A DNA stretch of 64,000 bases from Nemertoderma westbladi (taxonomy: Eukaryota > Animalia > Xenacoelomorpha): the NCBI GenBank assembly GCA_032718475.1, contig JAUCBJ010003249.1:7988-71987 (forward strand). Direction: 5' to 3'. Both the position numbers and the translations under genes were made by a program. Shown one piece after another: positions 5,318 to 50,300 of this stretch; position 1 is the stretch's first letter; the number at the start of each line of letters is the position of its first letter. The notes below the pieces were generated by a model. The model did no database searches, was not told the DNA's origin, and saw only the letters and a list, made by a program, of their open reading frames with translations.

Positions 5318-5376
5318 ATTCCTGTATTCAGATAGGCCTACAGGCCTACCGTAGTCAGGTAGTTGTAGTAAGTACA

Positions 5377-17689: not shown

Positions 17690-17875
17690 GTTAGTCAAAC
17701 ACTCTTTAACGTCAGTTATTGATTACAAATACCCGTCAGAATGCAGTCGCTGGCAATTTCTCTATTTTTCTCTAAGAAAACTTTCTCAGAAATGTTACAA
17801 TAATTTGAATTTAAAGCATTAGTTTATTTTGATAACTAGAATGGTTTATGCAAAGGATGAGTAGTTAGTTAGTGT

Positions 17876-25689: not shown

Positions 25690-25926
25690 GTTTGAACCCA
25701 CTGCAACCCAACCCGTACACTCAGCCGTTATGGAACGCCGCAGTCACTCAATACGAACGCGCGATGGAACCGGTAGAGAACACCGTCGCAGACAATCTAC
25801 GCAACGAAATACGCGCGATGGACGGCCAACCGCAGCAACTACTGCGAGAGTTTCAGCGGTACAAGGAGTTGGTTCAGAGACCAAACGTTAAAGAGAAACT
25901 CGTCGCCGAGAGGGAAACCTTACTGA
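25690..25926 (+). CDS. DYNC2H1: DYNC2H1 coding exon 6
   Basis: ATAAG| GLNPLQPNPYTQPLWNAAVTQYE...YKELVQRP...ERETLL; donor CTGA|GTTAGT (phase 1) joins in frame to exon 7. Confidence 0.92.
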
Positions 25927-25934
25927 GTTAGTCG

Positions 25935-28900
25935 ATTAGTTTGTTAGTTTAAAGTTAGTGTTGTTTGTTTGTTAGTTTGTTAGTTTAAAGTTAGTGTTGT
26001 TTGTTTGTTAGTTTAAAGTTAGTGTTGTTTGTTTGTTAGTTTAAAGTTAGTGTTGTTTGTTTGTTAGTTTGTTAGTTTAAAGTTAGTGTTGTTTGTTTGT
26101 TAGTTTAAAGTTAGTGTTGTTTGTTTGTTAGTTTAAAGTTGGTGTTGTTTGTTTGTTAGTTTATAGTTAGTGTTGTTTGTTTGTTAGTTTAAAGTTAGTG
26201 TTGTTTGTTTGTTAGTTTAAAGTTAGTGTTGTTTGTTTGTTAGTTTAAAGTTAGTGTTGTTTGTTTGTTAGTTTAAAGTTAGTGTTTTTTGTTTGTTAGT
26301 TTGTTAGTTTGTTAGTTTAAAGTTATTGTTGTTCGTTTGTTAGTTTAAAGTTAGTGTTGTTTGTTTGTTAGTTTAAAGTTAGTGTTGTTTGTTTGTTAGT
26401 TTAAAGTTAGTGTTGTTTGTTTGTTAGTTTAAAGTTAGTGTTGTTTGTTTGTTTGTTAGTTTAAAGTTAGTGTTGTTTGTTTGTTAGTTTAAAGTTGGTG
26501 TTGTTTGTTTGTTAGTTTATAGTTAGTGTTGTTTGTTTGTTAGTTTAAAGTTAGTGTTGTTTGTTTGTTAGTTTAAAGTTATTGTTGTTTGTTTGTTAGT
26601 TTAAAGTTAGTGTTGTTTGTTTGTTAGTTTAAAGTTAGTGTTGTTTGTTTGTTAGTTTAAAGTTAGTGTTGTTTGTTTGTTAGTTTAAAGTTAGTGTTGT
26701 TTGTTTGTTAGTTTAAAGTTAGTGTTTTTTGTTTGTTAGTTTGTTAGTTTAAAGTTATTGTTGTTTGTTTGTTAGTTTAAAGTTAGTGTTGTTTGTTTGT
26801 TAGTTTAAAGTTAGTGTTGTTTGTTTGTTAGTTTAAAGTTAGTGTTTTTTGTTTGTTAGTTTGTTAGTTTGTTAGTTTAAAGTTATTGTTGTTTGTTTGT
26901 TAGTTTAAAGTTAGTGTTGTTTGTTTGTTAGTTTAAAGTTAGTGTTGTTTGTTTGTTAGTTTAAAGTTAGTGTTGTTTGTTTGTTAGTTTAAAGTTAGTG
27001 TTGTTTGTTTGTTAGTTTAAAGTTAGTGTTTTTTGTTTGTTAGTTTGTTAGTTTAAAGTTAGTGTTGTTTGTTTGTTAGTTTAAAGTTAGTGTTGTTTGT
27101 TTGTTAGTTTAAAGTTAGTGTTGTTTGTTTGTTAGTTTAAGGTTAGTGTTGTTTGTTTGTTAGTTTAAAGTTAGTGTTGTTTGTTTGTTAGTTTAAAGTT
27201 AGTGTTGTTTGTTTGTTAGTTTAAAGTTAGTGTTGTTTGTTTGTTTGTTAGTTTAAAGTTAGTGTTGTTTGTTTGTTAGTTTAAAGTTAGTGTTGTTTGT
27301 TTGTTAGTTTAAAGTTAGTGTTGTTTGTTTGTTAGTTTAAAGTTAGTGTTGTTTGTTTGTTAGTTTAAAGTTATTGTTGTTTGTTTGTTAGTTTAAAGTT
27401 AGTGTTGTTTGTTTGTTAGTTTAAAGTTAGTGTTGTTTGTTTGTTAGTTTAAAGTTAGTGTTGTTTGTTTGTTAGTTTAAAGTTAGTGTTGTTTGTTTGT
27501 TAGTTTAAAGTTAGTGTTTTTTGTTTGTTAGTTTGTTAGTTTGTTAGTTTAAAGTTAGTGTTGTTTGTTTGTTAGTTTAAAGTTAGTGTTGTTTGTTTGT
27601 TAGTTTAAAGTTAGTGTTGTTTGTTTGTTAGTTTAAGGTTAGTGTTGTTTGTTTGTTAGTTTGTTAGTTTAAAGTTAGTGTTGTTTGTTTGTTAGTTTAA
27701 AGTTAGTGTTGTTTGTTTGTTAGTTTAAAGTTAGTGTTGTTTGTTTATTAGTTTAAAGTTAGTGTTGTTTGTTTGTTAGTTTATAGTTAGTGTTGTTAGT
27801 TTGTTAGTTTAAAGTTAGTGTTGTTTGTTTGTTAGTTTAAAGTTAGTGTTGTTTGTTTGTTAGTTTAAAGTTAGTGTTGTTTGTTTGTTAGTTTAAAGTT
27901 AGTGTTGTTTGTTTGTTAGTTTAAAGTTAGTGTTTTTTGTTTGTTAGTTTGTTAGTTTAAAGTTAGTGTTGTTTGTTTGTTAGTTTAAAGTTAGTGTTGT
28001 TTGTTTGTTAGTTTAAAGTTAGTGTTGTTTGTTTGTTAGTTTATAGTTAGTGTTGTTAGTTTGTTAGTTTAAAGTTAGTGTTGTTTGTTTGTTAGTTTAT
28101 AGTTAGTGTTGTTTGTTTGTTTGTTAGTTTAAAGTTAGTGTTGTTTGTTTGCTAGTTTAAAGTTAGTGTTGTTTGTTTGTTAGTTTAAAGTTAGTGTTGT
28201 TTGTTTGTTAGTTTAAAGTTAGTGTTGTTTGTTTGTTAGTTCGTTAGTTTGTTAGTTTGTTAGTTTAAAGTTAGTGTTGTTTGTTTGTTAGTTTAAAGTT
28301 AGTGTTGTTTGTTTGTTAGTTTGTTAGTTTAAAGTTAGTGTTGTTTGTTTGTTAGTTTAAAGTTAGTGTTTTTTGTTTGTTAGTTTGTTAGTTTAAAGTT
28401 AGTGTTGTTTGTTTGTTAGTTTAAAGTTAGTGTTGTTTGTTTGTTAGTTTAAAGTTAGTGTTTTTTGTTTGTTAGTTTAAAGTTAGTGTTGTTTGTTTGT
28501 TAGTTTTAAGTTAGTGTTGTTTGTTTGTTAGTTTGTTAGTTTAAAGTTAGTGTTGTTTGTTTGTTAGTTTATAGTTAGTGTTGTTTGTTTGTTTGTTAGT
28601 TTAAAGTTAGTGTTGTTTGTTTGCTAGTTTAAAGTTAGTGTTGTTTGTTTGTTAGTTTAAAGTTAGTGTTGTTTGTTTGTTAGTTTAAAGTTAGTGTTGT
28701 TTGTTTGTTAGTTTGTTAGTTTAAAGTTAGTGTTCTTTGTTTGTTAGTTTAAAGTTAGTGTTGTTTGTTTGTTAGTTTGTTAGTTTAAAGTTAGTGTTGT
28801 TTGTTTGTTAGTTTAAAGTTAGTGTTGTTTGTTTGTTAGTTTAAAGTTAGTGTTGTTTGTTTGTTAGTTTAAAGTTAGTGTTGTTTGTTTGTTAGTTTAA

Positions 28901-31077
28901 ATTTAGTGTTGTTTGTGTGTTAGTTTGTTAGTTTAAAGTTAGTGTTGTTTGTTTGTTAGTTTAAAGTTAGTGTTGTTTGTTTGTTAGTTTAAAGTTAGTG
29001 TTGTTTGTTTGTTAGTTTAAAGTTAGTGTTGTTTGTTTGTTAGTTTAAAGTTAGTGTTGTTTGTTTGTTAGTTTAAAGTTAGTGTTGTTTGTTTGTTAGT
29101 TTAAAGTTAGTGTTGTTTGTTTGTTAGTTTGTTAGTTTAAAGTTAGTGTTGTTTGTTTGTTAGTTTAAAGTTAGTGTTGTTTGTTTGTTAGTTTAAAGTT
29201 AGTGTTGTTTGTTTGTTAGTTTAAATTTAGTGTTGTTTGTTTGTTAGTTTGTTAGTTTAAAGTTATTGTTGTTTGTTTGTTAGTTTAAAGTTAGTGTTGT
29301 TTGTTTGTTAGTTTAAAGTTAGTGTTGTTTGTTTCTTAGTTTAAAGTTAGTGTTGTTTGTTTGTTAGTTTAAAGTTAGTGTTGTTTGTTTGTTAGTTTAA
29401 AGTTAGTGTTGTTTGTTTGTTTGTTAGTTTAAAGTTAGTGTTGTTTGTTTGTTAGTTTAAAGTTAGTGTTGTTTGTTTGTTAGTTTAAAGTTAGTGTTGT
29501 TTGTTTGTTAGTTTAAGGTTAGTGTTGTTTGTTTGTTAGTTTAAAGTTAGTGTTTTTTGTTTGTTAGTTTGTTAGTTTAAAGTTAGTGTTGTTTGTTTGT
29601 TAGTTTAAAGTTAGTGTTTTATTTGTTTGTTAGTTTAAAGTTAGTGTTGTTTGTTTGTTAGTTTGTTAGTTTAAAGTTAGTGTTGTTTGTTTGTTAGTTT
29701 AAAGTTAGTGTTGTTTGTTTGTTAGTTTGTTAGTTTAAAGTTAGTGTTGTTCGTTTGTTAGTTTAAAGTTAGTGTTGTTTGTTTGTTAGTTTAAAGTTAG
29801 TGTTGTTTGTTTGTTAGTTTAAAGTTAGTGTTGTTTGTTTGTTAGTTTAAAGTTAGTGTTGTTTGTTTGTTAGTTTAAAGTTAGTGTTGTTTGTTTGTTA
29901 GTTTAAAGTTAGTGTTGTTTGTTTGTTAGTTTAAAGTTAGTGTTGTTTGTTTGTTAGTTTAAAGTTAGTGTTGTTTGTTTGTTAGTTTGTTAGTTTAAAG
30001 TTAGTGTTGTTTGTTTGTTAGTTTAAAGTTAGTGTTGTTTGTTTGTTAGTTTGTTAGTTTAAAGTTAGTGTTGTTCGTTTGTTAGTTTAAAGTTAGTGTT
30101 GTTTGTTTGCTAGTTTAAAGTTAGTGTTGTTTGTTTGTTAGTTTAAAGTTAGTGTTGTTTGTTTGTTAGTTTAAAGTTAGTGTTGTTTGTTTGTTAGTTT
30201 AAAGTTAGTGTTGTTTGTTTGTTAGTTTAAAGTTAGTGTTGTTTGTTTGTTAGTTTAAAGTTAGTGTTGTTTGTTTGTTAGTTTAAAGTTAGTGTTGTTT
30301 GTTTGTTAGTTTAAAGTTAGTGTTGTTTGTTTGTTAGTTTGTTAGTTTAAAGTTAGTGTTGTTTGTTTGTTAGTTTAAAGTTAGTGTTGTTTGTTTGTTA
30401 GTTTGTTAGTTTAAAGTTAGTGTTGTTCGTTTGTTAGTTTAAAGTTAGTGTTGTTTGTTTGTTAGTTTAAAGTTAGTGTTGTTTGTTTGTTAGTTTAAAG
30501 TTAGTGTTGTTTGTTTGTTAGTTTAAAGTTAGTGTTGTTTGTTTGTTAGTTTAAAGTTAGTGTTGTTTGTTTGTTAGTTTGTTAGTTTAAAGTTAGTGTT
30601 GTTCGTTTGTTAGTTTAAAGTTAGTGTTGTTTGTTTCTTAGTTTAAAGTTAGTGTTGTTTGTTTGTTAGTTTATAGTTAGTGTTGTTTGTTTGTTAGTTT
30701 AAAGTTAGTGTTGTTTGTTTGTTAGTTTAAAGTTAGTGTTGTTTGTTTGTTAGTTTATAGTTAGTGTTGTTTGTTTGTTAGTTTAAAGTTAGTGTTGTTT
30801 GTTTGTTAGTTTATAGTTAGTGTTGTTTGTTTGTTAGTTTAAAGTTAGTGTTGTTTGTTTGTTAGTTTATAGTTAGTGTTGTTTGTTTGTTAGTTTAAAG
30901 TTAGTGTTGTTTGTTTGTTAGTTTATAGTTAGTGTTGTTTGTTTGTTAGTTTAAAGTTAGTGTTGTTTGTTTGTTAGTTTAAAGTTAGTGTTGTTTGTTT
31001 GTTAGTTTAAAGTTAGTGTTGTTTGTTTGTTAGTTTAAAGTTAGTGTTGTTTGTTTGTTAGTTTAAAGTTAGTGTTG
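25935..31077 (+). repeat. 28-bp GT-rich satellite (GTTAGTGTTGTTTGTTTGTTAGTTTAAA), roughly 175-180 copies, filling DYNC2H1 intron 6
   Basis: Directly visible; nearly C-free on the sense strand; variants add GTTAGTTT or GTTT. Confidence 0.98.
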
Positions 31078-31443
31078 CCTATCTGCATACCTATAATGTC
31101 TAACCTTCCGAAAACGGTATTTAATAGCCTCTGCTTTTTAGTGCTCAAGTTTGAAGCAACTTAAGGTACTGAATGGTAAAAAGTTAATTCAAAAAATTTA
31201 AGTAATAAATTCTTCAAAATGCCCCAAAAGCCTATTAATTTTCTGCCTGTGATTTTTGTAGTAAATTATTCAGTTGAAATACTAAAAATTATATTTATGA
31301 GGGAATAACCATAAATTTGGGCCGTTTTGAAAATCAGACGTTCATCAATTTATTATTAAGAACAATATTTTTGAACATGACGGCGTTATAAATATTATAT
31401 ATTTTATACTTATATTATATATATATATATTATTTTTTATTAG

Positions 31444-31676
31444 GCCAATTATCCGTATACATCGACAAACTCCGAGAGGACTTCAACCAAGCCTCGACCG
31501 GTGGTCCCGGACAGGAGGCTAACAATGTCCCAGAGGTTGTTAACCTCATCATCTACGTACGGCAGTTGGAGGGTAAAGTTGGGGAAACATTGGGGATAGC
31601 TGAGCAGTTACTAGGCGATCTCGGCCCCTTCAAACCCTTCAGACGAAGCGCCCTTGAGCTCCAAGATGAACTGCAG
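31444..31676 (+). CDS. DYNC2H1: DYNC2H1 coding exon 7 (not in ORF track)
   Basis: TTTATTAG| (S)QLSVYIDKLREDF...NVPEVVNLIIYVRQLEGKV...ELQDELQ |GTAGGT. Confidence 0.92.
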
Positions 31677-31848
31677 GTAGGTGATTAGTCCGACAGTGCT
31701 TCGTAGCATAGTAGCCGGCTATTTATTACCGTCGTTCTAAATTAACCTCTTCTTCTCTTTCCTACAGTATAACTGTACGCCGGTATGTCAATGTCGCAAC
31801 CAATGAACTACGTTTAGTTTATTTGAGTGTTTCTTTATATATTCGTAG

Positions 31849-32177: not shown

Positions 32178-32360
32178 GTTGCCCAGAAGTTTTACCGCCA
32201 TGGAATTATATTGAAGCAAGTCGCTCATTTCTACAACACAATCGATCAGCAGATGATACATAGCCAGAAACCCATGATGCTCGATGCCGCCTTAGCGTTC
32301 GAGAAAATTGTTAAGAATCCAAATACCACGAGTAAGAATGAAGGTGGTGACAAAGTACAG
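32178..32360 (+). CDS. DYNC2H1: DYNC2H1 coding exon 9 (gene continues beyond the window)
   Basis: TCCCAAG| VAQKFYRHGIILKQVAHFYNTIDQQMIHSQKPMMLDAALAFEKIVKN...GGDKVQ |GTGGGT. Similarity to recalled DYNC2H1 stops exactly here; the next expected residues are ITWDNP-like. Confidence 0.93.
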
Positions 32361-35300
32361 GTGGGTTGTATATGGAGTATCTCTATGGTGACAAAGTACA
32401 GGTGGGTTGTATATGGAGTATCTCCATGGTGACAAAGTACAGGTGGGTTGTGTATGGAGTATCTCTATGGTGACAAAGTAACGGTGGGTTGTATACGGAG
32501 TATCTCCATGGTGACAAAGTACGGGTGGGTTGTATATGGAGTATCTCTCTCTATGGTGATAAAGTACAGGTGGGTTGTGTATGGAGTATCTCTATGGTGA
32601 TAAAGTACAGGTGGGTTGTGTATGGAGTATCTCTATGGTGATAAAGTACAGGTGGGTTGTGTATGGAGTATCTCTATGGTGATAAAGTACAGGTGGGTTG
32701 TGTATGGAGTATCTCTCTCTATGGTGACAAAGTACAGGTGGGTTGTATATGGAGTATCTCTATGGTGACAAAGTACAGGTGGGTTGTGTATGGAGTATCT
32801 CTATGGTGATAAAGTACAGTGGGTTGTGTATGGAGTATCTCTATGGTGATAAAGTACAGGTGGGTTGTGTATGGAGTATCTCTATGGTGATAAAGTACAG
32901 GTGGGTTGTGTATGGAGTATCTCTATGGTGATAAAGTACAGGTGGGTTGTGTATGGAGTATCTCTATGGTGATAAAGTACAGGTGGGTTGTGTATGGAGT
33001 ATCTCTATGGTGATAAAGTACAGGTGGGTTGTGTATGGAGTATCTCTCTCTATGGTGACAAAGTACAGGTGGGTTGTATATGGAGTATCTCTATGGTGAC
33101 AAAGTACAGGTGGGTTGTGTATGGAGTATCTCTATGGTGATAAAGTACAGTGGGTTGTATATGGAGTATCTCCATGGTGATAAAGTACAGGTGGGTTGTG
33201 TATGGAGTATCTCTATGGTGACAAATTACAGGTGGGTTGTATATGGAGTATCTCCATGGTGACAAAGTACAGGTGGGTTGTGTATGGAGTATCTCTATGG
33301 TGATAAAGTACAGGTGGGTTGTGTATGGAGTATCTCTCTCTATGGTGACAAAGTACAGGTGGGTTGTATATGGAGTATCTCCATGGTGACAAAGTACAGG
33401 TGGGTTGTGTATGGAGTATCTCTATGGTGACAAAGTACAGTGGGTTGTATATGTAGTATCTCTATGGTGATAAAGTACAGGTGGGTTGTATATGGAGTAT
33501 CTCTATGGTGACAAAGTACAGGTGGGTTGTATATGGAGTATCTCTATGGTGACAAAGTACAGGTGGGTTGTATATGGAGTATCTCCATGGTGACAAAGTA
33601 CAGGTGGGTTGTGTATGGAGTATCTCTATGGTGACAAAGTACAGTGGGTTGTATATGGAGTATCTCTATGGTGATAAAGTACAGGTGGGTTGTGTATGGA
33701 GTATCTCCATGGTGACAAAGTACAGGTGGGTTGTATATGGAGTATCTCTATGGTGATAAAGTACAGGTGGGTTGTGTATGGAGTATCTCTATGGTGACAA
33801 AGTACAGGTGGGTTGTATATGGAGTATCTCTCTCTATGGTGACAAAGTACAGGTGGGTTGTATATGGAGTATCTCTCTCTATGGTGACAAAGTACAGGTG
33901 GGTTGTATATGGAGTATCTCTATGGTGATAAAGTACAGTGGGTTGTATATGGAGTATCTCTATGGTGACAAAGTACAGGTGGGTTGTGTATGGAGTATCT
34001 CCATGGTGACAAAGTACAGGTGGGTTGTGTATGGAGTATCTCTATGGTGACAAAGTACAGGTGGGTTGTATATGGAGTATCTCTATGGTGATAAAGTACA
34101 GGTGGGTTGTGTATGGAGTATCTCTCTCTATGGTGACAAAGTACAGGTGGGTTGTATATGGAGTATCTCTCTCTATGGTGACAAAGTACAGGTGGGTTGT
34201 ATATGGAGTATCTCTATGGTGATAAAGTACAGTGGGTTGTATATGGAGTATCTCTATGGTGACAAAGTACAGGTGGGTTGTATATGGAGTATCTCTCTCT
34301 ATGGTGACAAAGTACAGTGGGTTGTATATGGAGTATCTCTATGGTGACAAAGTACAGGTGGGTTGTATATGGAGTATCTCTATGGTGACAAAGTACAGTG
34401 GGTTGTATATGGAGTATCTCTATGGTGACAAAGTACAGGTGGGTTGTATATGGAGTATCTCTCTCTATGGTGACAAAGTACAGTGGGTTGTATATGGAGT
34501 ATCTCTATGGTGACAAAGTACAGGTGGGTTGTATATGGAGTATCTCTCTCTATGGTGACAAAGTACAGTGGGTTGTATATGGAGTATCTCTATGGTGACA
34601 AAGTACAGGTGGGTTGTATATGGAGTATCTCTCTCTATGGTGACAAAGTACAGTGGGTTGTATATGGAGTATCTCTATGGTGACAAAGTACAGGTGGGTT
34701 GTATATGGAGTATCTCTATGGTGACAAAGTACAGTGGGTTGTATATGGAGTATCTCTATGGTGACAAAGTACAGGTGGGTTGTATATGGAGTATCTCTCT
34801 CTATGGTGACAAAGTACAGTGGGTTGTATATGGAGTATCTCTATGGTGACAAAGTACAGGTGGGTTGTATATGGAGTATCTCTATGGTGATAAAGTACAG
34901 TGGGTTGTATATGGAGTATCTCTATGGTGACAAAGTACAGGTGGGTTGTATATGGAGTATCTCTCTCTATGGTGACAAAGTACAGTGGGTTGTATATGGA
35001 GTATCTCTATGGTGACAAAGTACAGGTGGGTTGTATATGGAGTATCTCTATGGTGATAAAGTACAGTGGGTTGTATATGGAGTATCTCTATGGTGACAAA
35101 GTACAGTGGGTTGTATATGGAGTATCTCTATGGTGATAAAGTACAGGTGGGTTGTGTATGGAGTATCTCTATGGTGACAAAGTACAGGTGGGTTGTATAT
35201 GGAGTATCTCTATGGTGATAAAGTACAGGTGGGTTGTATATGGAGTATCTCTATGGTGATAAAGTACAGTGGGTTGTATATGGAGTATCTCTATGGTGAC

Positions 35301-38300
35301 AAAGTACAGGTGGGTTGTATATGGAGTATCTCTATGGTGATAAAGTACAGGTGGGTTGTGTATGGAGTATCTCCATGGTGACAAAGTACAGGTGGGTTGT
35401 ATATGGAGTATCTCTATGGTGATAAAGTACAGGTGGGTTGTGTATGGAGTATCTCTATGGTGACAAAGTACAGGTGGGTTGTATATGGAGTATCTCTATG
35501 GTGATAAAGTACAGGTGGGTTGTATATGGAGTATCTCTATGGTGATAAAGTACAGTGGGTTGTATATGGAGTATCTCTATGGTGACAAAGTACAGTGGGT
35601 TGTATATGGAGTATCTCTATGGTGATAAAGTACAGGTGGGTTGTGTATGGAGTATCTCTATGGTGATAAAGTACAGTGGGTTGTATATGGAGTATCTCTA
35701 TGGTGATAAAGTACAGTGGGTTGTATATGGAGTATCTCTATGGTGACAAAGTACAGGTGGGTTGTATATGGAGTATCTCCATGGTGACAAAGTACAGGTG
35801 GGTTGTATATGGAGTATCTCTATGGTGATAAAGTACAGGTGGGTTGTGTATGGAGTATCTCTATGGTGATAAAGTACAGTGGGTTGTGTATGGAGTATCT
35901 CTATGGTGATAAAGTACAGTGGGTTGTATATGGAGTATCTCTATGGTGATAAAGTACAGGTGGGTTGTGTATGGAGTATCTCTATGGTGATAAAGTACAG
36001 TGGGTTGTGTATGGAGTATCTCTATGGTGATAAAGTACAGGTGGGTTGTGTATGGAGTATCTCTATGGTGATAAAGTACAGTGGGTTGTATATGGAGTAT
36101 CTCTATGGTGATAAAGTACAGTGGGTTGTATATGGAGTATCTCTATGGTGATAAAGTACAGGTGGGTTGTGTATGGAGTATCTCTATGGTGACAAAGTAC
36201 AGGTGGGTTGTATATGGAGTATCTCTATGGTGATAAAGTACAGTGGGTTGTATATGGAGTATCTCTATGGTGACAAAGTACAGGTGGGTTGTATATGGAG
36301 TATCTCTATGGTGATAAAGTACAGGTGGGTTGTGTATGGAGTATCTCTATGGTGATAAAGTACAGGTGGGTTGTATATGGAGTATCTCTATGGTGATAAA
36401 GTACAGTGGGTTGTATATGGAGTATCTCTATGGTGATAAAGTACAGTGGGTTGTATATGGAGTATCTCTATGGTGATAAAGTACAGTGGGTTGTATATGG
36501 AGTATCTCTATGGTGATAAAGTACAGTGGGTTGTATATGGAGTATCTCTATGGTGATAAAGTACAGTGGGTTGTATATGGAGTATCTCTATGGTGATAAA
36601 GTACAGGTGGGTTGTGTATGGAGTATCTCTATGGTGATAAAGTACAGTGGGTTGTATATGGAGTATCTCTATGGTGATAAAGTACAGGTGGGTTGTGTAT
36701 GGAGTATCTCTATGGTGATAAAGTACAGTGGGTTGTATATGGAGTATCTCTATGGTGATAAAGTACAGTGGGTTGTATATGGAGTATCTCTATGGTGATA
36801 AAGTACAGGTGGGTTGTGTATGGAGTATCTCTATGGTGATAAAGTACAGTGGGTTGTATATGGAGTATCTCTATGGTGATAAAGTACAGGTGGGTTGTGT
36901 ATGGAGTATCTCTATGGTGATAAAGTACAGTGGGTTGTATATGGAGTATCTCTATGGTGATAAAGTACAGGTGGGTTGTGTATGGAGTATCTCTATGGTG
37001 ATAAAGTACAGTGGGTTGTATATGGAGTATCTCTATGGTGATAAAGTACAGTGGGTTGTATATGGAGTATCTCTATGGTGATAAAGTACAGGTGGGTTGT
37101 GTATGGAGTATCTCTATGGTGATAAAGTACAGGTGGGTTGTGTATGGAGTATCTCTATGGTGACAAAGTACAGGTGGGTTGTATATGGAGTATCTCTATG
37201 GTGACAAAGTACAGTGGGTTGTGTATGGAGTATCTCTATGGTGATAAAGTACAGTGGGTTGTATATGGAGTATCTCTATGGTGATAAAGTACAGTGGGTT
37301 GTATATGGAGTATCTCTATGGTGATAAAGTACAGGTGGGTTGTATATGGAGTATCTCTATGGTGATAAAGTACAGGTGGGTTGTGTATGGAGTATCTCTA
37401 TGGTGATAAAGTACAGTGGGTTGTATATGGAGTATCTCTATGGTGATAAAGTACAGGTGGGTTGTATATGGAGTATCTCTATGGTGATAAAGTACAGGTG
37501 GGTTGTATATGGAGTATCTCTATGGTGACAAAGTACAGGTGGGTTGTATATGGAGTATCTCTATGGTGATAAAGTACAGGTGGGTTGTGTATGGAGTATC
37601 TCTATGGTGATAAAGTACAGGTGGGTTGTGTATGGAGTATCTCTATGGTGATAAAGTACAGTGGGTTGTGTATGGAGTATCTCTATGGTGATAAAGTACA
37701 GGTGGGTTGTGTATGGAGTATCTCTATGGTGATAAAGTACAGTGGGTTGTATATGGAGTATCTCTATGGTGACAAAGTACAGGTGGGTTGTATATGGAGT
37801 ATCTCTATGGTGATAAAGTACAGGTGGGTTGTGTATGGAGTATCTCTATGGTGATAAAGTACAGGTGGGTTGTGTATGGAGTATCTCTATGGTGATAAAG
37901 TACAGGTGGGTTGTGTATGGAGTATCTCTATGGTGATAAAGTACAGGTGGGTTGTATATGGAGTATCTCCATGGTGACAAAGTACAGGTGGGTTGTGTAT
38001 GGAGTATCTCTATGGTGATAAAGTACAGGTGGGTTGTGTATGGAGTATCTCTCTCTATGGTGACAAAGTACAGGTGGGTTGTATATGGAGTATCTCCATG
38101 GTGACAAAGTACAGGTGGGTTGTATATGGAGTATCTCTCTCTATGGTGACAAAGTACAGGTGGGTTGTATATGGAGTATCTCTATGGTGATAAAGTACAG
38201 GTGGGTTGTGTATGGAGTATCTCTCTCTATGGTGACAAAGTACAGGTGGGTTGTATATGGAGTATCTCCATGGTGACAAAGTACAGGTGGGTTGTGTATG

Positions 38301-41300
38301 GAGTATCTCTATGGTGACAAAGTACAGTGGGTTGTATATGGAGTATCTCTCTCTATGGTGACAAAGTACAGGTGGGTTGTATATGGAGTATCTCTCTCTA
38401 TGGTGACAAAGTACAGGTGGGTTGTATATGGAGTATCTCTATGGTGACAAAGTACAGGTGGGTTGTATATGGAGTATCTCTCTCTATGGTGACAAAGTAC
38501 AGGTGGGTTGTATATGGAGTATCTCTCTCTATGGTGACAAAGTACAGGTGGGTTGTATATGGAGTATCTCTATGGTGATAAAGTACAGGTGGGTTGTGTA
38601 TGGAGTATCTCTATGGTGACAAAGTACAGTGGGTTGTATATGGAGTATCTCTATGGTGACAAAGTACAGGTGGGTTGTATATGGAGTATCTCTATGGTGA
38701 TAAAGTACAGGTGGGTTGTATATGGAGTATCTCTCTCTATGGTGACAAAGTACAGGTGGGTTGTATATGGAGTATCTCCATGGTGACAAAGTACAGGTGG
38801 GTTGTATATGGAGTATCTCTATGGTGATAAAGTACAGGTGGGTTGTATATGGAGTATCTCTATGGTGACAAAGTACAGGTGGGTTGTATATGGAGTATCT
38901 CTATGGTGATAAAGTACAGGTGGGTTGTATATGGAGTATCTCTATGGTGATAAAGTACAGGTGGGTTGTATATGGAGTATCTCTCTCTATGGTGACAAAG
39001 TACAGGTGGGTTGTATATGGAGTATCTCCATGGTGACAAAGTACAGGTGGGTTGTATATGGAGTATCTCTATGGTGACAAAGTACAGTGGGTTGTATATG
39101 TAGTATCTCTATGGTGATAAAGTACAGGTGGGTTGTATATGGAGTATCTCTATGGTGACAAAGTACAGGTGGGTTGTATATGGAGTATCTCTATGGTGAC
39201 AAAGTACAGGTGGGTTGTATATGGAGTATCTCCATGGTGACAAAGTACAGGTGGGTTGTGTATGGAGTATCTCTATGGTGACAAAGTACAGTGGGTTGTA
39301 TATGGAGTATCTCTATGGTGACAAAGTACAGGTGGGTTGTATATGGAGTATCTCTATGGTGACAAAGTACAGTGGGTTGTATATGGAGTATCTCTCTCTA
39401 TGGTGACAAAGTACGGGTGGGTTGTATATGGAGTATCTCTATGGTGACAAAGTACAGGTGGGTTGTATATGGAGTATCTCCATGGTGACAAAGTACAGGT
39501 GGGTTGTATATGGAGTATCTCTATGGTGATAAAGTACAGGTGGGTTGTATATGGAGTATCTCTATGGTGACAAAGTACAGGTGGGTTGTATATGGAGTAT
39601 CTCCATGGTGACAAAGTACAGGTGGGTTGTATATGGAGTATCTCTCTCTATGGTGACAAAGTACAGGTGGGTTGTATATGGAGTATCTCCATGGTGACAA
39701 AGTACAGGTGGGTTGTATATGGAGTATCTCTATGGTGATAAAGTACAGGTGGGTTGTATATGGAGTATCTCTATGGTGACAAAGTACAGGTGGGTTGTAT
39801 ATGGAGTATCTCCATGGTGACAAAGTACAGGTGGGTTGTGTATGGAGTATCTCTATGGTGACAAAGTACAGTGGGTTGTATATGGAGTATCTCTATGGTG
39901 ACAAAGTACAGGTGGGTTGTATATGGAGTATCTCCATGGTGACAAAGTACAGGTGGGTTGTGTATGGAGTATCTCTATGGTGACAAAGTACAGTGGGTTG
40001 TATATGGAGTATCTCTATGGTGACAAAGTACAGTGGGTTGTATATGGAGTATCTCTATGGTGACAAAGTACAGTGGGTTGTATATGGAGTATCTCTATGG
40101 TGATAAAGTACAGGTGGGTTGTATATGGAGTATCTCTATGGTGATAAAGTACAGGTGGGTTGTATATGGAGTATCTCTATGGTGACAAAGTACAGGTGGG
40201 TTGTATATGGAGTATCTCTATGGTGACAAAGTACAGTGGGTTGTGTATGGAGTATCTCTATGGTGACAAAGTACAGTGGGTTGTATATGGAGTATCTCTC
40301 TCTATGGTGACAAAGTACAGGTGGGTTGTATATGGAGTATCTCCATGGTGACAAAGTATAGGTGGGTTGTATATGGAGTATCTCTATGGTGACAAAGTAC
40401 AGTGGGTTGTATATGGAGTATCTCTCTCTATGGTGACAAAGTACAGGTGGGTTGTATATGGAGTATCTCTCTCTATGGTGACAAAGTACAGGTGGGTTGT
40501 ATATGGAGTATCTCCATGGTGACAAAGTATAGGTGGGTTGTATATGGAGTATCTCTCTCTATGGTGACAAAGTACAGGTGGGTTGTATATGGAGTATCTC
40601 CATGGTGACAAAGTACAGTGGGTTGTATATGGAGTATCTCTCTCTATGGTGACAAAGTACAGGTGGGTTGTATATGGAGTATCTCCATGGTGACAAAGTA
40701 TAGGTGGGTTGTATATGGAGTATCTCTATGGTGATAAAGTACAGGTGGGTTGTATATGGAGTATCTCTATGGTGACAAAGTACAGGTGGGTTGTATATGG
40801 AGTATCTCTATGGTGATAAAGTACAGGTGGGTTGTGTATGGAGTATCTCTATGGTGACAAAGTACAGTGGGTTGTATATGGAGTATCTCTCTCTATGGTG
40901 ACAAAGTACAGGTGGGTTGTATATGGAGTATCTCTCTCTATGGTGACAAAGTACAGGTGGGTTGTATATGGAGTATCTCCATGGTGACAAAGTACAGTGG
41001 GTTGTATATGGAGTATCTCTCTCTATGGTGACAAAGTACAGGTGGGTTGTATATGGAGTATCTCCATGGTGACAAAGTATAGGTGGGTTGTATATGGAGT
41101 ATCTCTATGGTGATAAAGTACAGGTGGGTTGTATATGGAGTATCTCTATGGTGACAAAGTACAGGTGGGTTGTATATGGAGTATCTCTATGGTGATAAAG
41201 TACAGGTGGGTTGTATATGGAGTATCTCTATGGTGATAAAGTACAGGTGGGTTGTATATGGAGTATCTCTATGGTGACAAAGTACAGTGGGTTGTATATG

Positions 41301-44300
41301 TAGTATCTCTATGGTGATAAAGTACAGGTGGGTTGTATATGGAGTATCTCTATGGTGACAAAGTACAGGTGGGTTGTATATGGAGTATCTCTATGGTGAC
41401 AAAGTACAGGTGGGTTGTATATGGAGTATCTCCATGGTGACAAAGTACAGGTGGGTTGTGTATGGAGTATCTCTATGGTGACAAAGTACAGTGGGTTGTA
41501 TATGGAGTATCTCTATGGTGATAAAGTACAGGTGGGTTGTGTATGGAGTATCTCCATGGTGACAAAGTACAGGTGGGTTGTATATGGAGTATCTCTATGG
41601 TGATAAAGTACAGGTGGGTTGTGTATGGAGTATCTCTATGGTGACAAAGTACAGGTGGGTTGTATATGGAGTATCTCTCTCTATGGTGACAAAGTACAGG
41701 TGGGTTGTATATGGAGTATCTCTCTCTATGGTGACAAAGTACAGGTGGGTTGTATATGGAGTATCTCTATGGTGATAAAGTACAGTGGGTTGTATATGGA
41801 GTATCTCTATGGTGACAAAGTACAGGTGGGTTGTATATGGAGTATCTCTATGGTGACAAAGTACAGGTGGGTTGTATATGGAGTATCTCTATGGTGATAA
41901 AGTACAGGTGGGTTGTGTATGGAGTATCTCTATGGTGATAAAGTACAGGTGGGTTGTGTATGGAGTATCTCCTATGGTGACAAAGTACAGGTGGGTTGTA
42001 TATGGAGTATCTCTATGGTGATAAAGTACAGGTGGGTTGTGTATGGAGTATCTCTATGGTGACAAAGTACAGGTGGGTTGTATATGGAGTATCTCTCTCT
42101 ATGGTGACAAAGTACAGGTGGGTTGTATATGGAGTATCTCTCTCTATGGTGACAAAGTACAGGTGGGTTGTATATGGAGTATCTCTCTATGGTGACAAAG
42201 TACAGGTGGGTTGTATATGGAGTATCTCTCTATGGTGACAAAGTACAGGTGGGTTGTGTATGGAGTATCTCTATGGTGATAAAGTACAGGTGGGTTGTGT
42301 ATGGAGTATCTCCTATGGTGACAAAGTACAGGTGGGTTGTATATGGAGTATCTCTATGGTGATAAAGTACAGGTGGGTTGTGTATGGAGTATCTCTATGG
42401 TGACAAAGTACAGGTGGGTTGTATATGGAGTATCTCTCTCTATGGTGACAAAGTACAGGTGGGTTGTATATGGAGTATCTCTCTCTATGGTGACAAAGTA
42501 CAGTGGGTTGTATATGGAGTATCTCTATGGTGATAAAGTACAGTGGGTTGTATATGGAGTATCTCTATGGTGACAAAGTACAGGTGGGTTGTATATGGAG
42601 TATCTCTATGGTGACAAAGTACAGGTGGGTTGTATATGGAGTATCTCTATGGTGACAAAGTACAGGTGGGTTGTATATGGAGTATCTCTATGGTGACAAA
42701 GTACAGGTGGGTTGTATATGGAGTATCTCTATGGTGATAAAGTACAGTGGGTTGTATATGGAGTATCTCTATGGTGACAAAGTACAGGTGGGTTGTATAT
42801 GGAGTATCTCTATGGTGACAAAGTACAGGTGGGTTGTATATGGAGTATCTCTATGGTGACAAAGTACAGGTGGGTTGTATATGGAGTATCTCTATGGTGA
42901 TAAAGTACAGGTGGGTTGTGTATGGAGTATCTCTATGGTGACAAAGTACAGGTGGGTTGTGTATGGAGTATCTCTATGGTGACAAAGTACAGGTGGGTTG
43001 TATATGGAGTATCTCTATGGTGATAAAGTACAGGTGGGTTGTGTATGGAGTATCTCTATGGTGACAAAGTACAGGTGGGTTGTATATGGAGTATCTCTAT
43101 GGTGATAAAGTACAGGTGGGTTGTGTATGGAGTATCTCTATGGTGATAAAGTACAGGTGGGTTGTATATGGAGTATCTCTATGGTGACAAAGTACAGGTG
43201 GGTTGTATATGGAGTATCTCTATGGTGACAAAGTACAGGTGGGTTGTGTATGGAGTATCTCTATGGTGATAAAGTACAGGTGGGTTGTATATGGAGTATC
43301 TCTATGGTGATAAAGTACAGGTGGGTTGTATATGGAGTATCTCTATGGTGACAAAGTACAGGTGGGTTGTATATGGAGTATCTCTATGGTGATAAAGTAC
43401 AGGTGGGTTGTATATGGAGTATCTCTATGGTGATAAAGTACAGTGGGTTGTATATGGAGTATCTCTATGGTGATAAAGTACAGGTGGGTTGTATATGGAG
43501 TATCTCTATGGTGACAAAGTACAGTGGGTTGTATATGGAGTATCTCTATGGTGATAAAGTACAGGTGGGTTGTATATGGAGTATCTCTATGGTGATAAAG
43601 TACAGGTGGGTTGTATATGGAGTATCTCTATGGTGACAAAGTACAGTGGGTTGTATATGGAGTATCTCTATGGTGACAAAGTACAGGTGGGTTGTATATG
43701 GAGTATCTCTATGGTGACAAAGTACAGGTGGGTTGTATATGGAGTATCTCTATGGTGACAAAGTACAGGTGGGTTGTGTATGGAGTATCTCTATGGTGAT
43801 AAAGTACAGTGGGTTGTATATGGAGTATCTCTATGGTGACAAAGTACAGGTGGGTTGTATATGGAGTATCTCTATGGTGACAAAGTACAGGTGGGTTGTA
43901 TATGGAGTATCTCTATGGTGACAAAGTACAGGTGGGTTGTGTATGGAGTATCTCTATGGTGACAAAGTACAGTGGGTTGTATATGGAGTATCTCTATGGT
44001 GACAAAGTACAGGTGGGTTGTATATGGAGTATCTCTATGGTGACAAAGTACAGGTGGGTTGTGTATGGAGTATCTCTATGGTGATAAAGTACAGGTGGGT
44101 TGTATATGGAGTATCTCTATGGTGACAAAGTACAGGTGGGTTGTGTATGGAGTATCTCTATGGTGACAAAGTACAGGTGGGTTGTATATGGAGTATCTCT
44201 ATGGTGACAAAGTACAGGTGGGTTGTATATGGAGTATCTCTATGGTGACAAAGTACAGGTGGGTTGTATATGGAGTATCTCTATGGTGACAAAGTACAGG

Positions 44301-47300
44301 TGGGTTGTATATGGAGTATCTCTATGGTGACAAAGTACAGGTGGGTTGTGTATGGAGTATCTCTATGGTGACAAAGTACAGGTGGGTTGTATATGGAGTA
44401 TCTCTATGGTGACAAAGTACAGGTGGGTTGTATATGGAGTATCTCTATGGTGACAAAGTACAGGTGGGTTGTATATGGAGTATCTCTATGGTGACAAAGT
44501 ACAGGTGGGTTGTATATGGAGTATCTCTATGGTGACAAAGTACAGGTGGGTTGTGTATGGAGTATCTCTATGGTGACAAAGTACAGTGGGTTGTATATGG
44601 AGTATCTCTATGGTGACAAAGTACAGGTGGGTTGTATATGGAGTATCTCTATGGTGACAAAGTACAGGTGGGTTGTATATGGAGTATCTCTATGGTGACA
44701 AAGTACAGGTGGGTTGTATATGGAGTATCTCTATGGTGACAAAGTACAGGTGGGTTGTGTATGGAGTATCTCTATGGTGACAAAGTACAGGTGGGTTGTA
44801 TATGGAGTATCTCTATGGTGACAAAGTACAGGTGGGTTGTATATGGAGTATCTCTATGGTGACAAAGTACAGGTGGGTTGTGTATGGAGTATCTCTATGG
44901 TGACAAAGTACAGGTGGGTTGTATATGGAGTATCTCTATGGTGACAAAGTACAGGTGGGTTGTATATGGAGTATCTCTATGGTGACAAAGTACAGGTGGG
45001 TTGTGTATGGAGTATCTCTCTATGGTGACAAAGTACAGGTGGGTTGTATATGGAGTATCTCTATGGTGACAAAGTACAGGTGGGTTGTATATGGAGTATC
45101 TCTATGGTGACAAAGTACAGGTGGGTTGTATATGGAGTATCTCTATGGTGACAAAGTACAGGTGGGTTGTGTATGGAGTATCTCTATGGTGACAAAGTAC
45201 AGGTGGGTTGTATATGGAGTATCTCTATGGTGACAAAGTACAGGTGGGTTGTATATGGAGTATCTTCTATGGTGACAAAGTACAGGTGGGTTGTATATGG
45301 AGTATCTCTATGGTGACAAAGTACAGGTGGGTTGTATATGGAGTATCTCTATGGTGACAAAGTACAGGTGGGTTGTGTATGGAGTATCTCTCTCTATGGT
45401 GACAAAGTACAGGTGGGTTGTATATGGAGTATCTCTATGGTGACAAAGTACAGGTGGGTTGTGTATGGAGTATCTCCTATGGTGACAAAGTACAGGTGGG
45501 TTGTATATGGAGTATCTCTATGGTGACAAAGTACAGGTGGGTTGTATATGGAGTATCTCTCTCTATGGTGACAAAGTACAGGTGGGTTGTATATGGAGTA
45601 TCTCTATGGTGACAAAGTACAGGTGGGTTGTGTATGGAGTATCTCTATGGTGACAAAGTACAGGTGGGTTGTATATGGAGTATCTCTATGGTGACAAAGT
45701 ACAGGTGGGTTGTATATGGAGTATCTCTATGGTGACAAAGTACAGGTGGGTTGTATATGGAGTATCTCTATGGTGACAAAGTACAGGTGGGTTGTGTATG
45801 GAGTATCTCTCTCTATGGTGACAAAGTACAGGTGGGTTGTATATGGAGTATCTCTATGGTGACAAAGTACAGGTGGGTTGTATATGGAGTATCTCCTATG
45901 GTGACAAAGTACAGGTGGGTTGTATATGGAGTATCTCTATGGTGACAAAGTACAGGTGGGTTGTGTATGGAGTATCTCTCTCTATGGTGACAAAGTACAG
46001 GTGGGTTGTATATGGAGTATCTCTATGGTGACAAAGTACAGGTGGGTTGTATATGGAGTATCTCTATGGTGACAAAGTACAGGTGGGTTGTGTATGGAGT
46101 ATCTCTCTCTATGGTGACAAAGTACAGGTGGGTTGTATATGGAGTATCTCTATGGTGACAAAGTACAGGTGGGTTGTGTATGGAGTATCTCTCTCTATGG
46201 TGACAAAGTACAGGTGGGTTGTATATGGAGTATCTCTATGGTGACAAAGTACAGGTGGGTTGTATATGGAGTATCTCTATGGTGACAAAGTACAGGTGGG
46301 TTGTATATGGAGTATCTCTATGGTGACAAAGTACAGGTGGGTTGTGTATGGAGTATCTCTCTCTATGGTGACAAAGTACAGGTGGGTTGTATATGGAGTA
46401 TCTCTATGGTGACAAAGTACAGGTGGGTTGTGTATGGAGTATCTCTCTCTATGGTGACAAAGTACAGGTGGGTTGTATATGGAGTATCTCTATGGTGACA
46501 AAGTACAGGTGGGTTGTGTATGGAGTATCTCTCTCTATGGTGACAAAGTACAGGTGGGTTGTATATGGAGTATCTCTATGGTGACAAAGTACAGGTGGGT
46601 TGTGTATGGAGTATCTCTATGGTGACAAAGTACAGTGGGTTGTATATGGAGTATCTCTATGGTGACAAAGTACAGGTGGGTTGTGTATGGAGTATCTCTC
46701 TCTATGGTGACAAAGTACAGGTGGGTTGTATATGGAGTATCTCTATGGTGACAAAGTACAGGTGGGTTGTGTATGGAGTATCTCTCTCTATGGTGACAAA
46801 GTACAGGTGGGTTGTATATGGAGTATCTCTATGGTGACAAAGTACAGGTGGGTTGTATATGGAGTATCTCTATGGTGACAAAGTACAGGTGGGTTGTGTA
46901 TGGAGTATCTCTCTCTATGGTGACAAAGTACAGGTGGGTTGTATATGGAGTATCTCTATGGTGACAAAGTACAGGTGGGTTGTATATGGAGTATCTCCTC
47001 TATGGTGACAAAGTACAGGTGGGTTGTATATGGAGTATCTCTATGGTGACAAAGTACAGGTGGGTTGTATATGGAGTATCTCTATGGTGACAAAGTACAG
47101 GTGGGTTGTATATGGAGTATCTCTATGGTGACAAAGTACAGGTGGGTTGTGTATGGAGTATCTCTCTCTATGGTGACAAAGTACAGGTGGGTTGTATATG
47201 GAGTATCTCTATGGTGACAAAGTACAGGTGGGTTGTGTATGGAGTATCTCTCTCTATGGTGACAAAGTACAGGTGGGTTGTATATGGAGTATCTCTATGG

Positions 47301-50300
47301 TGACAAAGTACAGGTGGGTTGTGTATGGAGTATCTCTCTCTATGGTGACAAAGTACAGTGGGTTGTATATGGAGTATCTCTATGGTGACAAAGTACAGGT
47401 GGGTTGTATATGGAGTATCTCTATGGTGACAAAGTACAGGTGGGTTGTATATGGAGTATCTCTATGGTGACAAAGTACAGGTGGGTTGTGTATGGAGTAT
47501 CTCTCTCTATGGTGACAAAGTACAGTGGGTTGTATATGGAGTATCTCTATGGTGACAAAGTACAGGTGGGTTGTATATGGAGTATCTCTATGGTGACAAA
47601 GTACAGGTGGGTTGTGTATGGAGTATCTCTCTCTATGGTGACAAAGTACAGGTGGGTTGTATATGGAGTATCTCTATGGTGACAAAGTACAGTGGGTTGT
47701 ATATGGAGTATCTCTATGGTGACAAAGTACAGGTGGGTTGTGTATGGAGTATCTCTCTCTATGGTGACAAAGTACAGGTGGGTTGTATATGGAGTATCTC
47801 TATGGTGACAAAGTACAGGTGGGTTGTGTATGGAGTATCTCTCTCTATGGTGACAAAGTACAGGTGGGTTGTATATGGAGTATCTCTATGGTGACAAAGT
47901 ACAGGTGGGTTGTATATGGAGTATCTCTATGGTGACAAAGTACAGGTGGGTTGTGTATGGAGTATCTCTCTCTATGGTGACAAAGTACAGGTGGGTTGTA
48001 TATGGAGTATCTCTATGGTGACAAAGTACAGGTGGGTTGTATATGGAGTATCTCTATGGTGACAAAGTACAGGTGGGTTGTGTATGGAGTATCTCTCTCT
48101 ATGGTGACAAAGTACAGGTGGGTTGTATATGGAGTATCTCTATGGTGACAAAGTACAGGTGGGTTGTATATGGAGTATCTCTATGGTGACAAAGTACAGG
48201 TGGGTTGTATATGGAGTATCTCTATGGTGACAAAGTACAGGTGGGTTGTGTATGGAGTATCTCTCTCTATGGTGACAAAGTACAGTGGGTTGTATATGGA
48301 GTATCTCTATGGTGACAAAGTACAGGTGGGTTGTATATGGAGTATCTCTATGGTGACAAAGTACAGGTGGGTTGTATATGGAGTATCTCTATGGTGACAA
48401 AGTACAGGTGGGTTGTGTATGGAGTATCTCTCTCTATGGTGACAAAGTACAGTGGGTTGTATATGGAGTATCTCTATGGTGACAAAGTACAGGTGGGTTG
48501 TATATGGAGTATCTCTATGGTGACAAAGTACAGGTGGGTTGTGTATGGAGTATCTCTCTCTATGGTGACAAAGTACAGGTGGGTTGTATATGGAGTATCT
48601 CTATGGTGACAAAGTACAGGTGGGTTGTGTATGGAGTATCTCTCTCTATGGTGACAAAGTACAGTGGGTTGTATATGGAGTATCTCTATGGTGACAAAGT
48701 ACAGGTGGGTTGTATATGGAGTATCTCTATGGTGACAAAGTACAGGTGGGTTGTGTATGGAGTATCTCTCTCTATGGTGACAAAGTACAGTGGGTTGTAT
48801 ATGGAGTATCTCTATGGTGACAAAGTACAGGTGGGTTGTATATGGAGTATCTCTATGGTGACAAAGTACAGGTGGGTTGTGTATGGAGTATCTCTCTATG
48901 GTGACAAAGTACAGTGGGTTGTATATGGAGTATCTCTATGGTGACAAAGTACAGGTGGGTTGTATATGGAGTATCTCTATGGTGACAAAGTACAGGTGGG
49001 TTGTGTATGGAGTATCTCTCTCTATGGTGACAAAGTACAGGTGGGTTGTATATGGAGTATCTCTATGGTGACAAAGTACAGGTGGGTTGTATATGGAGTA
49101 TCTCTATGGTGACAAAGTACAGGTGGGTTGTGTATGGAGTACCTCTCTATGGTGACAAAGTACAGGTGGGTTGTATATGGAGTATCTCTATGGTGACAAA
49201 GTACAGGTGGGTTGTGTATGGAGTATCTCTCTCTATGGTGACAAAGTACAGTGGGTTGTATATGGAGTATCTCTATGGTGACAAAGTACAGGTGGGTTGT
49301 ATATGGAGTATCTCTATGGTGACAAAGTACAGGTGGGTTGTATATGGAGTATCTCTATGGTGACAAAGTACAGGTGGGTTGTGTATGGAGTATCTCTCTC
49401 TATGGTGACAAAGTACAGGTGGGTTGTATATGGAGTATCTCTATGGTGACAAAGTACAGGTGGGTTGTGTATGGAGTACTCTCTCTATGGTGACAAAGTA
49501 CAGGTGGGTTGTATATGGAGTATCTCTATGGTGACAAAGTACAGGTGGGTTGTGTATGGAGTATCTCTCTATGGTGACAAAGTACAGTGGGTTGTATATG
49601 GAGTATCTCTATGGTGACAAAGTACAGGTGGGTTGTATATGGAGTATCTCTATGGTGACAAAGTACAGGTGGGTTGTATATGGAGTATCTCCTCTATGGT
49701 GACAAAGTACAGTGGGTTGTATATGGAGTATCTCTATGGTGACAAAGTACAGGTGGGTTGTGTATGGAGTATCTCTCTATGGTGACAAAGTACAGGTGGG
49801 TTGTATATGGAGTATCTCTATGGTGACAAAGTACAGGTGGGTTGTGTATGGAGTATCTCTCTCTATGGTGACAAAGTACAGGTGGGTTGTATATGGAGTA
49901 TCTCTATGGTGACAAAGTACAGGTGGGTTGTATATGGAGTACTCTCTCTATGGTGACAAAGTACAGGTGGGTTGTATATGGAGTATCTCTATGGTGACAA
50001 AGTACAGGTGGGTTGTATATGGAGTATCTCTATGGTGACAAAGTACAGGTGGGTTGTATATGGAGTATCTCTATGGTGACAAAGTACAGGTGGGTTGTAT
50101 ATGGAGTATCTCTATGGTGACAAAGTACAGGTGGGTTGTATATGGAGTACTCTCTCTATGGTGACAAAGTACAGGTGGGTTGTATATGGAGTATCTCTAT
50201 GGTGACAAAGTACAGGTGGGTTGTATATGGAGTATCTCTATGGTGACAAAGTACAGGTGGGTTGTATATGGAGTATCTCTATGGTGACAAAGTACAGGTG

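Follow-up and report, generated by a model that had tools for sequence, protein, structure and literature searches.

Minisatellites whose first monomer lies across an exon-intron border, with the donor reiterated in the monomers that follow, are known from several genes; the parts of Borensztajn et al. (2006, PMC1557585) used here list F7 intron 7, IFI 6-16 (intron 2), CBS (intron 13), LMNB2 and PDGF. In F7, the element is a 37-bp variable number tandem repeat whose first unit consists of the last 4 bp of the exon and 33 bp of the intron, and the identical downstream pseudo-sites are described in the same source as functional but unused, the most upstream site being chosen in an oriented, 5'-to-3' manner. 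Tandem repeats across exon-intron borders are also found in the lancelet, where they are called 'mirages' (a definition of Canestro et al. 2002, as relayed in PMC3087553); they are reported, in the portions of PMC3087553 and PMC3902484 that we cite, to leave splicing undisturbed, and the genes concerned include Adh3, the globins BflGb6 and BflGb9, PGBD5 and troponin C (Ebner et al. 2010, PMC3087553; PMC3902484). Here we analysed a stretch of 64,000 nt from Nemertoderma westbladi (assembly GCA_032718475.1, contig JAUCBJ010003249.1, positions 7,988 to 71,987 of the forward strand; hereafter the window), in which intron 6 of a gene resembling that of the cytoplasmic dynein 2 heavy chain (DYNC2H1) begins with a 28-bp tandem array that repeats the hexamer of its own donor, GTTAGT. 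The array works like the F7 and mirage cases and is of that known kind, without their defining border-spanning monomer; we class it as a variant because it abuts the border and none of its decoys reproduces the full 9-nt site.

The 28-bp array at the intron 6 donor

The window holds the 5' part of the DYNC2H1-like gene on the + strand, with nine exons and the start codon at 17504. Exon borders were taken from tblastn matches, reading of the sequence and open frames, and all of them rest on homology and consensus. Exon 6 shares 64–65% identity (65% by tblastn) with the 'cytoplasmic dynein 2 heavy chain 1-like' protein (P0001) of the crinoid Anneissia japonica, and matches residues 574-651 of human DYNC2H1 in PDB 6rla (E 5.5e-21, phmmer). 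The junction of 25926 with 31444 encodes ERETLL-S-QLSVY, which equals in length the crinoid ERETLLQQLQQY and also ERESLLGKLSEY of another relative; in the human protein, exon 6 reaches residue 651 and exon 7 resumes at residue 653, with one residue in between for the split codon. Because the protein length at this junction equals that of the crinoid and human proteins, we place the productive junction at the first hexamer, and the exon 6 donor proposed at 25926/25927 in the first-pass annotation is thus supported by homology. Reading through into intron 6 gives CTG AGT TAG, with a stop at the second codon (the open reading frame (ORF) 25689-25931 ends in ...ERETLLS), and therefore any downstream hexamer used as a donor would give a truncated reading frame. 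The array holds 386 TAG and 163 TAA.

Intron 6 spans 25927-31443 (5517 nt), of which 5151 nt are array and 366 nt are a unique tail, in agreement with the earlier approximation of about 5.1 of 5.5 kb with a tail of about 365 nt. Tandem Repeats Finder (TRF) called the 28-bp array at 25969-31077 (177.1 copies, 89% matches, 8% indels). Our own segmentation, in which the sequence was cut at a recurring AAAGTTAGTG anchor, yielded 175 units over 25927-31077: 141 units of 28 nt, 22 of 36 nt, five of 32 nt, three of 44 nt, one each of 52, 30 and 27 nt, and a last unit of 10 nt. The length variants step by 8 nt (a whole GTTAGTTT, giving the units of 36, 44 and 52 nt) or by 4 nt (GTTT, giving those of 32 nt). 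Identity to the consensus is complete in 106 of the 174 whole units. Multi-unit strings of variants recur along the array (BABG three times, CDJAA twice, and alternating C and A near the array end), as is typical of unequal exchange in which blocks of several units take part. Strong divergence is confined to the first unit, unit 0, which has 4 mismatches and 1 gap against the consensus (5 of 28 places) and contains a CGA that recurs in no other unit. At the other edge, unique sequence (CCTATC) starts at 31078, directly after the 10-nt last unit.

The hexamer GTTAGT occurs 366 times in 25927-31077 as compared to nine times in the remaining 58,849 nt; about 350 donor-like hexamers had been estimated for the array before. 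The strings AAGTTAGT and TTGTTAGT are present 150 and 199 times in the array, respectively, and neither is found elsewhere in the window. The transcribed strand of the array contains hardly any C (13 in 5151 nt), the other bases being T (58%), G (25%) and A (17%). Variants of the hexamer (GTTATT, GTTGGT and TTTAGT) are seen among the units alongside changes at other places; there is no visible protection of the hexamers, which mutate like the other unit positions. We found no copy of the 28-mer in the rest of the window (both strands, up to 5 errors) and no match there to any 16-mer of the unit (up to 1 mismatch), and an exact 35-mer scan of metagenome contigs for the array gave 0 matches. No Rfam family reached its gathering score in 17000-33000.

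Aligned end-to-end and in phase with the consensus, unit 0 gives 23 matches, 4 mismatches and 1 gap (score 17). Other 27-nt pieces scored lower against the tandem consensus, with 5–10 for the starts of the eight other introns (8 for intron 1), 4 for the end of exon 6 and 4 for the stretch that follows the array. A score of 17 was never reached in 5000 shuffles of unit 0, and was reached once in 5000 with GTTAGT held fixed. An array with the donor in register is thus real and non-random, and its placement by chance is unlikely. The first-pass annotation let the array start within about 10 nt of the donor; the proximity holds, and the offset is to be corrected, since the repeat is in phase from intron position +1. 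Upstream of the cut, agreement with the unit is limited to the A at -1 (positions -9 to -1 give 2 of 9 matches). A first monomer spanning the border, as in F7 or the mirages, is therefore not found for the 28-mer, whose repeat includes at most one exon base.

GTTAGT is a normal hexamer for the dynein gene, because the donor of exon 1 is also GTTAGT and three of the nine donors within the window have T at +3 (two of the nine are GTTAGT). The exon 1 site, CAG/GTTAGT at 17690, was already pointed out in the first pass; it was placed by the ORF end and continuity, and agrees with the human numbering to one residue. We scored donor strength as the number of matches to MAG/GURAGU, the consensus quoted in PMC1557585. 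The authentic intron 6 donor has 5 of 9 matches, the lowest among the nine donors of the gene in the window (the others have 6–8). Among the decoys, 152 have 7–8 matches (149 AAA/GTTAGT and 3 AAG/GTTAGT), and 197 TTT/GTTAGT have 5; besides AAA, TTT and AAG, the trinucleotides before the hexamers are ATA (11) and a few others. The full 9-nt site TGA/GTTAGT occurs once. By analogy with human F7 intron 7, the most upstream donor would be chosen as the first one after the exon, and the 365 downstream hexamers would either stay silent or yield transcripts that terminate at the TAG, which lies two codons into the intron, and would probably be degraded.

Two further explanations for the decoys were tried and rejected. 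Masking by RNA structure does not hold, as the region 25900-26140 folds worse than shuffled sequences (z = +1.66; 192 of 200 shuffles fold at least as well). Recursive-splicing ratchet sites, in which a 3' site is set against a regenerated AG/GT, do not fit either, as only 3 of the 366 hexamers follow AG.

The intron 9 array, described cases and other animals

The dynein gene carries a second very large array, a 41-bp repeat on the same strand that likewise starts at a donor, that of intron 9 (Table 1). Exon 9 ends at 32360; its final 16 nt are part of the 41-bp unit, as is the donor CAG/GTGGGT, which has 8 of 9 consensus matches. Homology to the crinoid protein (…DG-KLQVTW) suggests that the GGDKVQ encoded at this border is exonic. 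The 41-bp array is a true border-spanning array of the mirage or F7 type, and a plain member of the class. It differs from the 28-bp array in that it spans the border and repeats a strong donor, and in its monomer: the first-pass annotation had called the two monomers unrelated, and their alignment score of 7 against a shuffled mean of 7.57 bears this out. The same annotation gave both arrays the same geometry, which is right insofar as both touch a donor and goes too far in detail, as the 41-mer takes in 16 exon nucleotides and the 28-mer at most one.

Table 1. Positions of the features discussed, counted from the first nucleotide of the window.
Feature	Positions	Strand	Description
Exon 1 donor CAG/GTTAGT	17690..17695	+	Intronic hexamer identical to that of the intron 6 donor; no repeat behind it
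Exon 6	25690..25926	+	Ends ...ERETLL plus first base of a split Ser codon; tblastn, phmmer
Authentic 5' splice site TGA/GTTAGT (cut 25926/25927)	25924..25932	+	Placed by homology; 5 of 9 matches to MAG/GURAGU
28-bp minisatellite	25927..31077	+	175 units, consensus GTTAGTGTTGTTTGTTTGTTAGTTTAAA, 366 GTTAGT; TRF and own segmentation
Unit 0	25927..25953	+	First 27 nt of intron 6, reading GTTAGTCG, ATTAGTTT, GTTAGTTT, AAA
Last unit GTTAGTGTTG	31068..31077	+	Cut after 10 nt; identical to consensus; right array edge
Unique 366-nt tail of intron 6	31078..31443	+	AT-rich tract; ends in acceptor TTTTTTATTAG
Exon 7	31444..31676	+	GC completes the Ser codon, then QLSVYIDKLREDF...; homology to crinoid and human proteins
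41-bp array, intron 9	32345..64000	+	More than 766 units; runs off the window

Compared with F7 as described in the cited parts of Borensztajn et al. (PMC1557585), intron 6 shares a minisatellite that begins at the 5' splice site, a donor motif repeated downstream, and a productive junction at the most upstream site (placed by homology for intron 6), which makes it a natural test of donor choice. Reiteration of the donor is found at the level of the intronic hexamer (366 copies) and not of the full 9-nt site (one copy). In F7, the first unit crosses the border and the pseudo-sites are identical to the real site; the intron 6 repeat contains 0–1 exon base, and 152 of its decoys match the consensus better than the real site does. 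The scale also differs: that source gives 5–9 units for F7 and at most about 25 for 6-16, versus 175 units with two hexamers each in intron 6. F7 is backed by RNA and mutational evidence there, and the intron 6 case is read from the sequence.

With the lancelet mirages, which according to the cited sections number several per genome and even per gene, the dynein gene shares repeats tied to borders, and more than one of them. The mirages are described as evolving in concert with an edge unit left out; in the 28-bp array a diverged edge unit is seen on the left side, and the right-edge units equal the consensus. The 28-mer differs from them in that it includes no exon pieces and does not span the border. 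Unit numbers in the lancelet are small (3–6 for BflGb6, in the same sections) as compared to 175 in intron 6. The host is different as well, the nearest named match of exon 6 being the crinoid protein (64%).

The exon 6 protein was also scanned against metagenome contigs, which gave 12 animal loci (L001-L012) with 44–69% identity. None of them has an intron at the position of intron 6 in the window; 11 of the 12 have a nearby intron after ER (AG/G, phase 2), 14 nt upstream of that position, and the remaining one (L007) has no intron there. Intron 5 of the window (25035-25689) is found in 0 of the 10 loci that cover it. The loci also carry introns near residue 50 of exon 6 and near residue 45 of exon 7, neither of which is present in the window. 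The unshared introns 5 and 6, together with the absent counterparts, point to probable intron turnover between lineages. Among the seven complete counterpart introns, no tandem array was found at the donor. Since the loci belong to distant animals, the comparison establishes two things and no more: the array is no old feature conserved among animals, and neither intron 5 nor intron 6 is universal.

Origin of the array

We favour, with moderate confidence, the reading that slippage during local copying of the intron's first 27 nt gave rise to the array, and that the array is a neutral passenger. In a first step, copying of the donor hexamer and two bases would have produced a short series of GTTAGTTT-like 8-mers. 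A 27–28-nt block of this series would then have been duplicated between short direct repeats (GTTAGTGTTG), and unequal exchange would finally have expanded and homogenised the block to 175 units, with the unit at the exon-side edge left behind. Because the array ends in a 10-nt partial unit, we infer a single founder copy flanked by GTTAGTGTTG direct repeats 28 nt apart, a possible substrate for slippage. Seeding by the donor is made plausible by unit 0, which can be divided into three GTTAGTTT-like 8-mers. On concerted evolution the array gives a mixed picture: 106 of 174 units are identical and the left-edge unit is diverged, but the right-edge units equal the consensus. Edge units left out of homogenisation are also reported for the lancelet mirages in the passages of Ebner et al. 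(2010, PMC3087553) used here. The first-pass annotation had called the array donor-seeded; its geometry, an array in register with the productive donor, stands, and the seeding itself does not follow from it, as the reverse order of events fits the same sequence.

Several points weigh against this account. The use of the first donor and the silence of the decoys are things that we infer, for a site that is the weakest of the gene by consensus (5 of 9) with 152 decoys that score better (7–8 of 9). Intron 6 is in this respect a harder case than F7, whose repeated sites are identical, and sites of perfect consensus could shift splicing in F7 according to the experiments cited from PMC1557585. Divergence of the edge unit is seen at the left edge alone, the right-edge unit being undiverged. 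A single sequence does not reveal the order of events, and the CGA of unit 0 recurs in no other unit. Two large arrays that touch donors in one gene hint at a bias beyond plain slippage, and the neutrality of the array is assumed.

An origin of the unit by an exon-sequence duplication that made the intron was rejected, as the unit contains no exon-like sequence. A lariat or RNA-templated origin, which might explain a unit that starts at +1, was set aside because the neighbouring 41-mer includes exon bases; a unit of 27–28 nt is also too short for a lariat loop.

The order of events could be reversed: a GT-rich minisatellite may have stood in the intron first, and one of its units may later have been recruited as the donor, through deletion or conversion involving a repeat hexamer and the former donor. 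We consider this unlikely, though it has several observations on its side. The hexamer is unusual as a donor (T at +3) and has a poor exon side (TGA, 5 of 9 matches overall), as a makeshift site might; the edges of repeat and exon coincide to 1 nt, the exact product of a homology-guided deletion between GTTAGT copies; and the unit resembles a degenerate (GTTT)n tract, which could arise anywhere. A recently captured unit should, however, resemble the consensus, and unit 0 differs from it at 5 of 28 places while 106 of the 174 units are identical. GTTAGT also works at exon 1 without a repeat, and T at +3 is shared by three of the nine donors of the gene. The array-first order thus seems to fit the divergence of unit 0 less well than the donor-first order.

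A bolder reading is that a process in this genome preferentially starts tandem amplification at 5' splice sites, and that the 152 better donors are tolerated only through strict commitment of the animal's spliceosome to the first donor; we regard it as a long shot. Its starting point is that the dynein gene has two unrelated arrays (5 kb and more than 31 kb) that both start at donors, one of them precisely at the first intron base. If true, donor-anchored arrays would be a mutational signature of DNA instability coupled to splicing and a natural, extreme assay of donor choice, and they might be a route of intron birth or movement, with the intron 6 position found in 0 of the 12 other loci.

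Still more doubtful is the possibility that the array is a working element, i.e. a pre-mRNA platform that combines U1-type donors with GU-rich protein sites, and which might strengthen the weak donor, protect the long intron, or tune output by unproductive decoy splicing. The 152 decoys with 7–8 consensus matches would suit such a platform, as would the position of the array behind the weakest donor of the gene, its unstructured and hence accessible strand, and the absence of AATAAA and ATTAAA from its 5.1 kb. TGTTTGTTTGT is present in 153 exact copies, an 11-mer cited as a CELF1 GU-rich element; in our test for this element, the 11-mer UGUUUGUUUGU was counted 153 times in the array, and binding by the protein is putative. 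Against a function, the hexamers mutate like other positions, and the very high identity of the units indicates recent turnover rather than long maintenance. Neither the array (0 of 7 complete counterpart introns) nor the intron position (0 of 12 loci) is shared by the other animals, and the lancelet and human cases are reported, in the parts of PMC1557585, PMC3087553 and PMC3902484 that we cite, not to disturb splicing.

It is very unlikely, in our view, that the repeat is a relic of the birth or relocation of a lineage-specific intron 6 and preserves a trace of the tandem duplication from which the intron came, as the Rogers and 'mirage' models of intron gain would have it. The intron positions are suggestive here, with the nearby intron 14 nt upstream in 11 of 12 other loci and none in the remaining one, the window's position shared by none, and intron 5 likewise unshared in all 10 loci that cover it; Ebner et al. 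predict, in the section cited (PMC3087553), that new introns made from mirages retain remnants of the repeat. However, no exon sequence can be recognised in the unit (a score of 4 for the final 27 nt of exon 6), a duplication does not explain the unique 366-nt tail, and the 12 loci are distant (44–69% protein identity), so intron 6 may be old in the lineage of the window.

That an ordinary intronic minisatellite in GT-rich DNA merely happens to begin beside the donor, with a coincidental match of the hexamer, is highly improbable. GTTAGT-like words do arise easily in GT-rich DNA of low complexity, the finding was selected post hoc in a window full of repeats (36 TRF rows), and the smaller arrays of introns 2, 3 and 4 touch no splice sites. 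The phase of the hexamer is nevertheless exact with the unit, to 1 nt, and the other large array of the dynein gene is also on a donor. A rough estimate, reasoned and not a computed test, puts the chance at a product of about 0.001, from an array edge within 28 nt of the donor (about 0.07, taking the intron as some 400 nt long prior to expansion), a phase correct to within 1 nt (about 0.1) and a donor that is GTTAGT (at most about 0.2, from 2 of 9 donors).

An assembly artefact, in which the repeat exists and its length or its placement next to the exon comes from mis-assembly of a collapsed or expanded repeat, is scarcely credible: long, near-identical arrays are hard to assemble, and a mis-assembled mirage in a draft genome is noted by Ebner et al. 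(PMC3087553, section cited), but the left junction (exon 6 and unit 0) and the right junction (partial unit, tail and exon 7) are unique, the gene is intact, and the pattern of variants along the array is not that of a simple collapse.

Neighbouring features and meaning of the locus

Smaller arrays lie elsewhere in and near the dynein gene. Two of them, with units of about 40 bp built on AACTGT/AACTGA hexamers, are in intron 2 away from splice sites (18548-18652 and 19518-19700), and a 32-bp array (12 copies) and an 11-bp array (about 29 copies) lie in 15173-15995, which is 1.5–2.3 kb upstream of the dynein start codon. ORF fragments that we take, from their translations, to be retroelement-like (reverse-transcriptase-type) are found at 10627-11292 (-), 13256-14152 (+) and 21369-23025 (+), and one set of such fragments sits in intron 4 of the dynein gene.

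Other genes of the window include an intronless ORF of 610 amino acids for a mucolipin-like (TRPML) channel at 163-1995 (-), with 38–42% identity to vertebrate mucolipins, the closest among the 120 matches listed; it may be a retrogene or reflect an intron-poor lineage. The ORF at 4538-5392 (-) is presumably DTW-domain-like, a name given from reading of the translation, and an 18-bp array (64 copies of GTGGTACAGACACACATG, 2844-4001) lies between these two ORFs. From their translations, we also assume that the single-exon ORF at 9101-9775 (+) is GTSF1-type zinc-finger-like, and that the single-exon ORF at 11419-12627 (+) encodes a RAD51 paralogue (XRCC3-like).

Donor-repeating minisatellites are rare natural experiments on the choice of one 5' splice site among many, and it was the F7 case, with 5–9 identical sites, that yielded the 'oriented scanning' model, as presented in the cited part of PMC1557585. 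Intron 6 is a far harder test than F7, with 365 extra hexamers, 152 of them scoring above the real site, directly after the weakest donor in an essential gene for a cilia motor. As a single locus, it is a striking, large and instructive example of an already known oddity. If the decoys are used, the gene would pay a measurable cost via nonsense-mediated decay; if the first site is cleanly used, position would outrank strength over a range that has never been tested.

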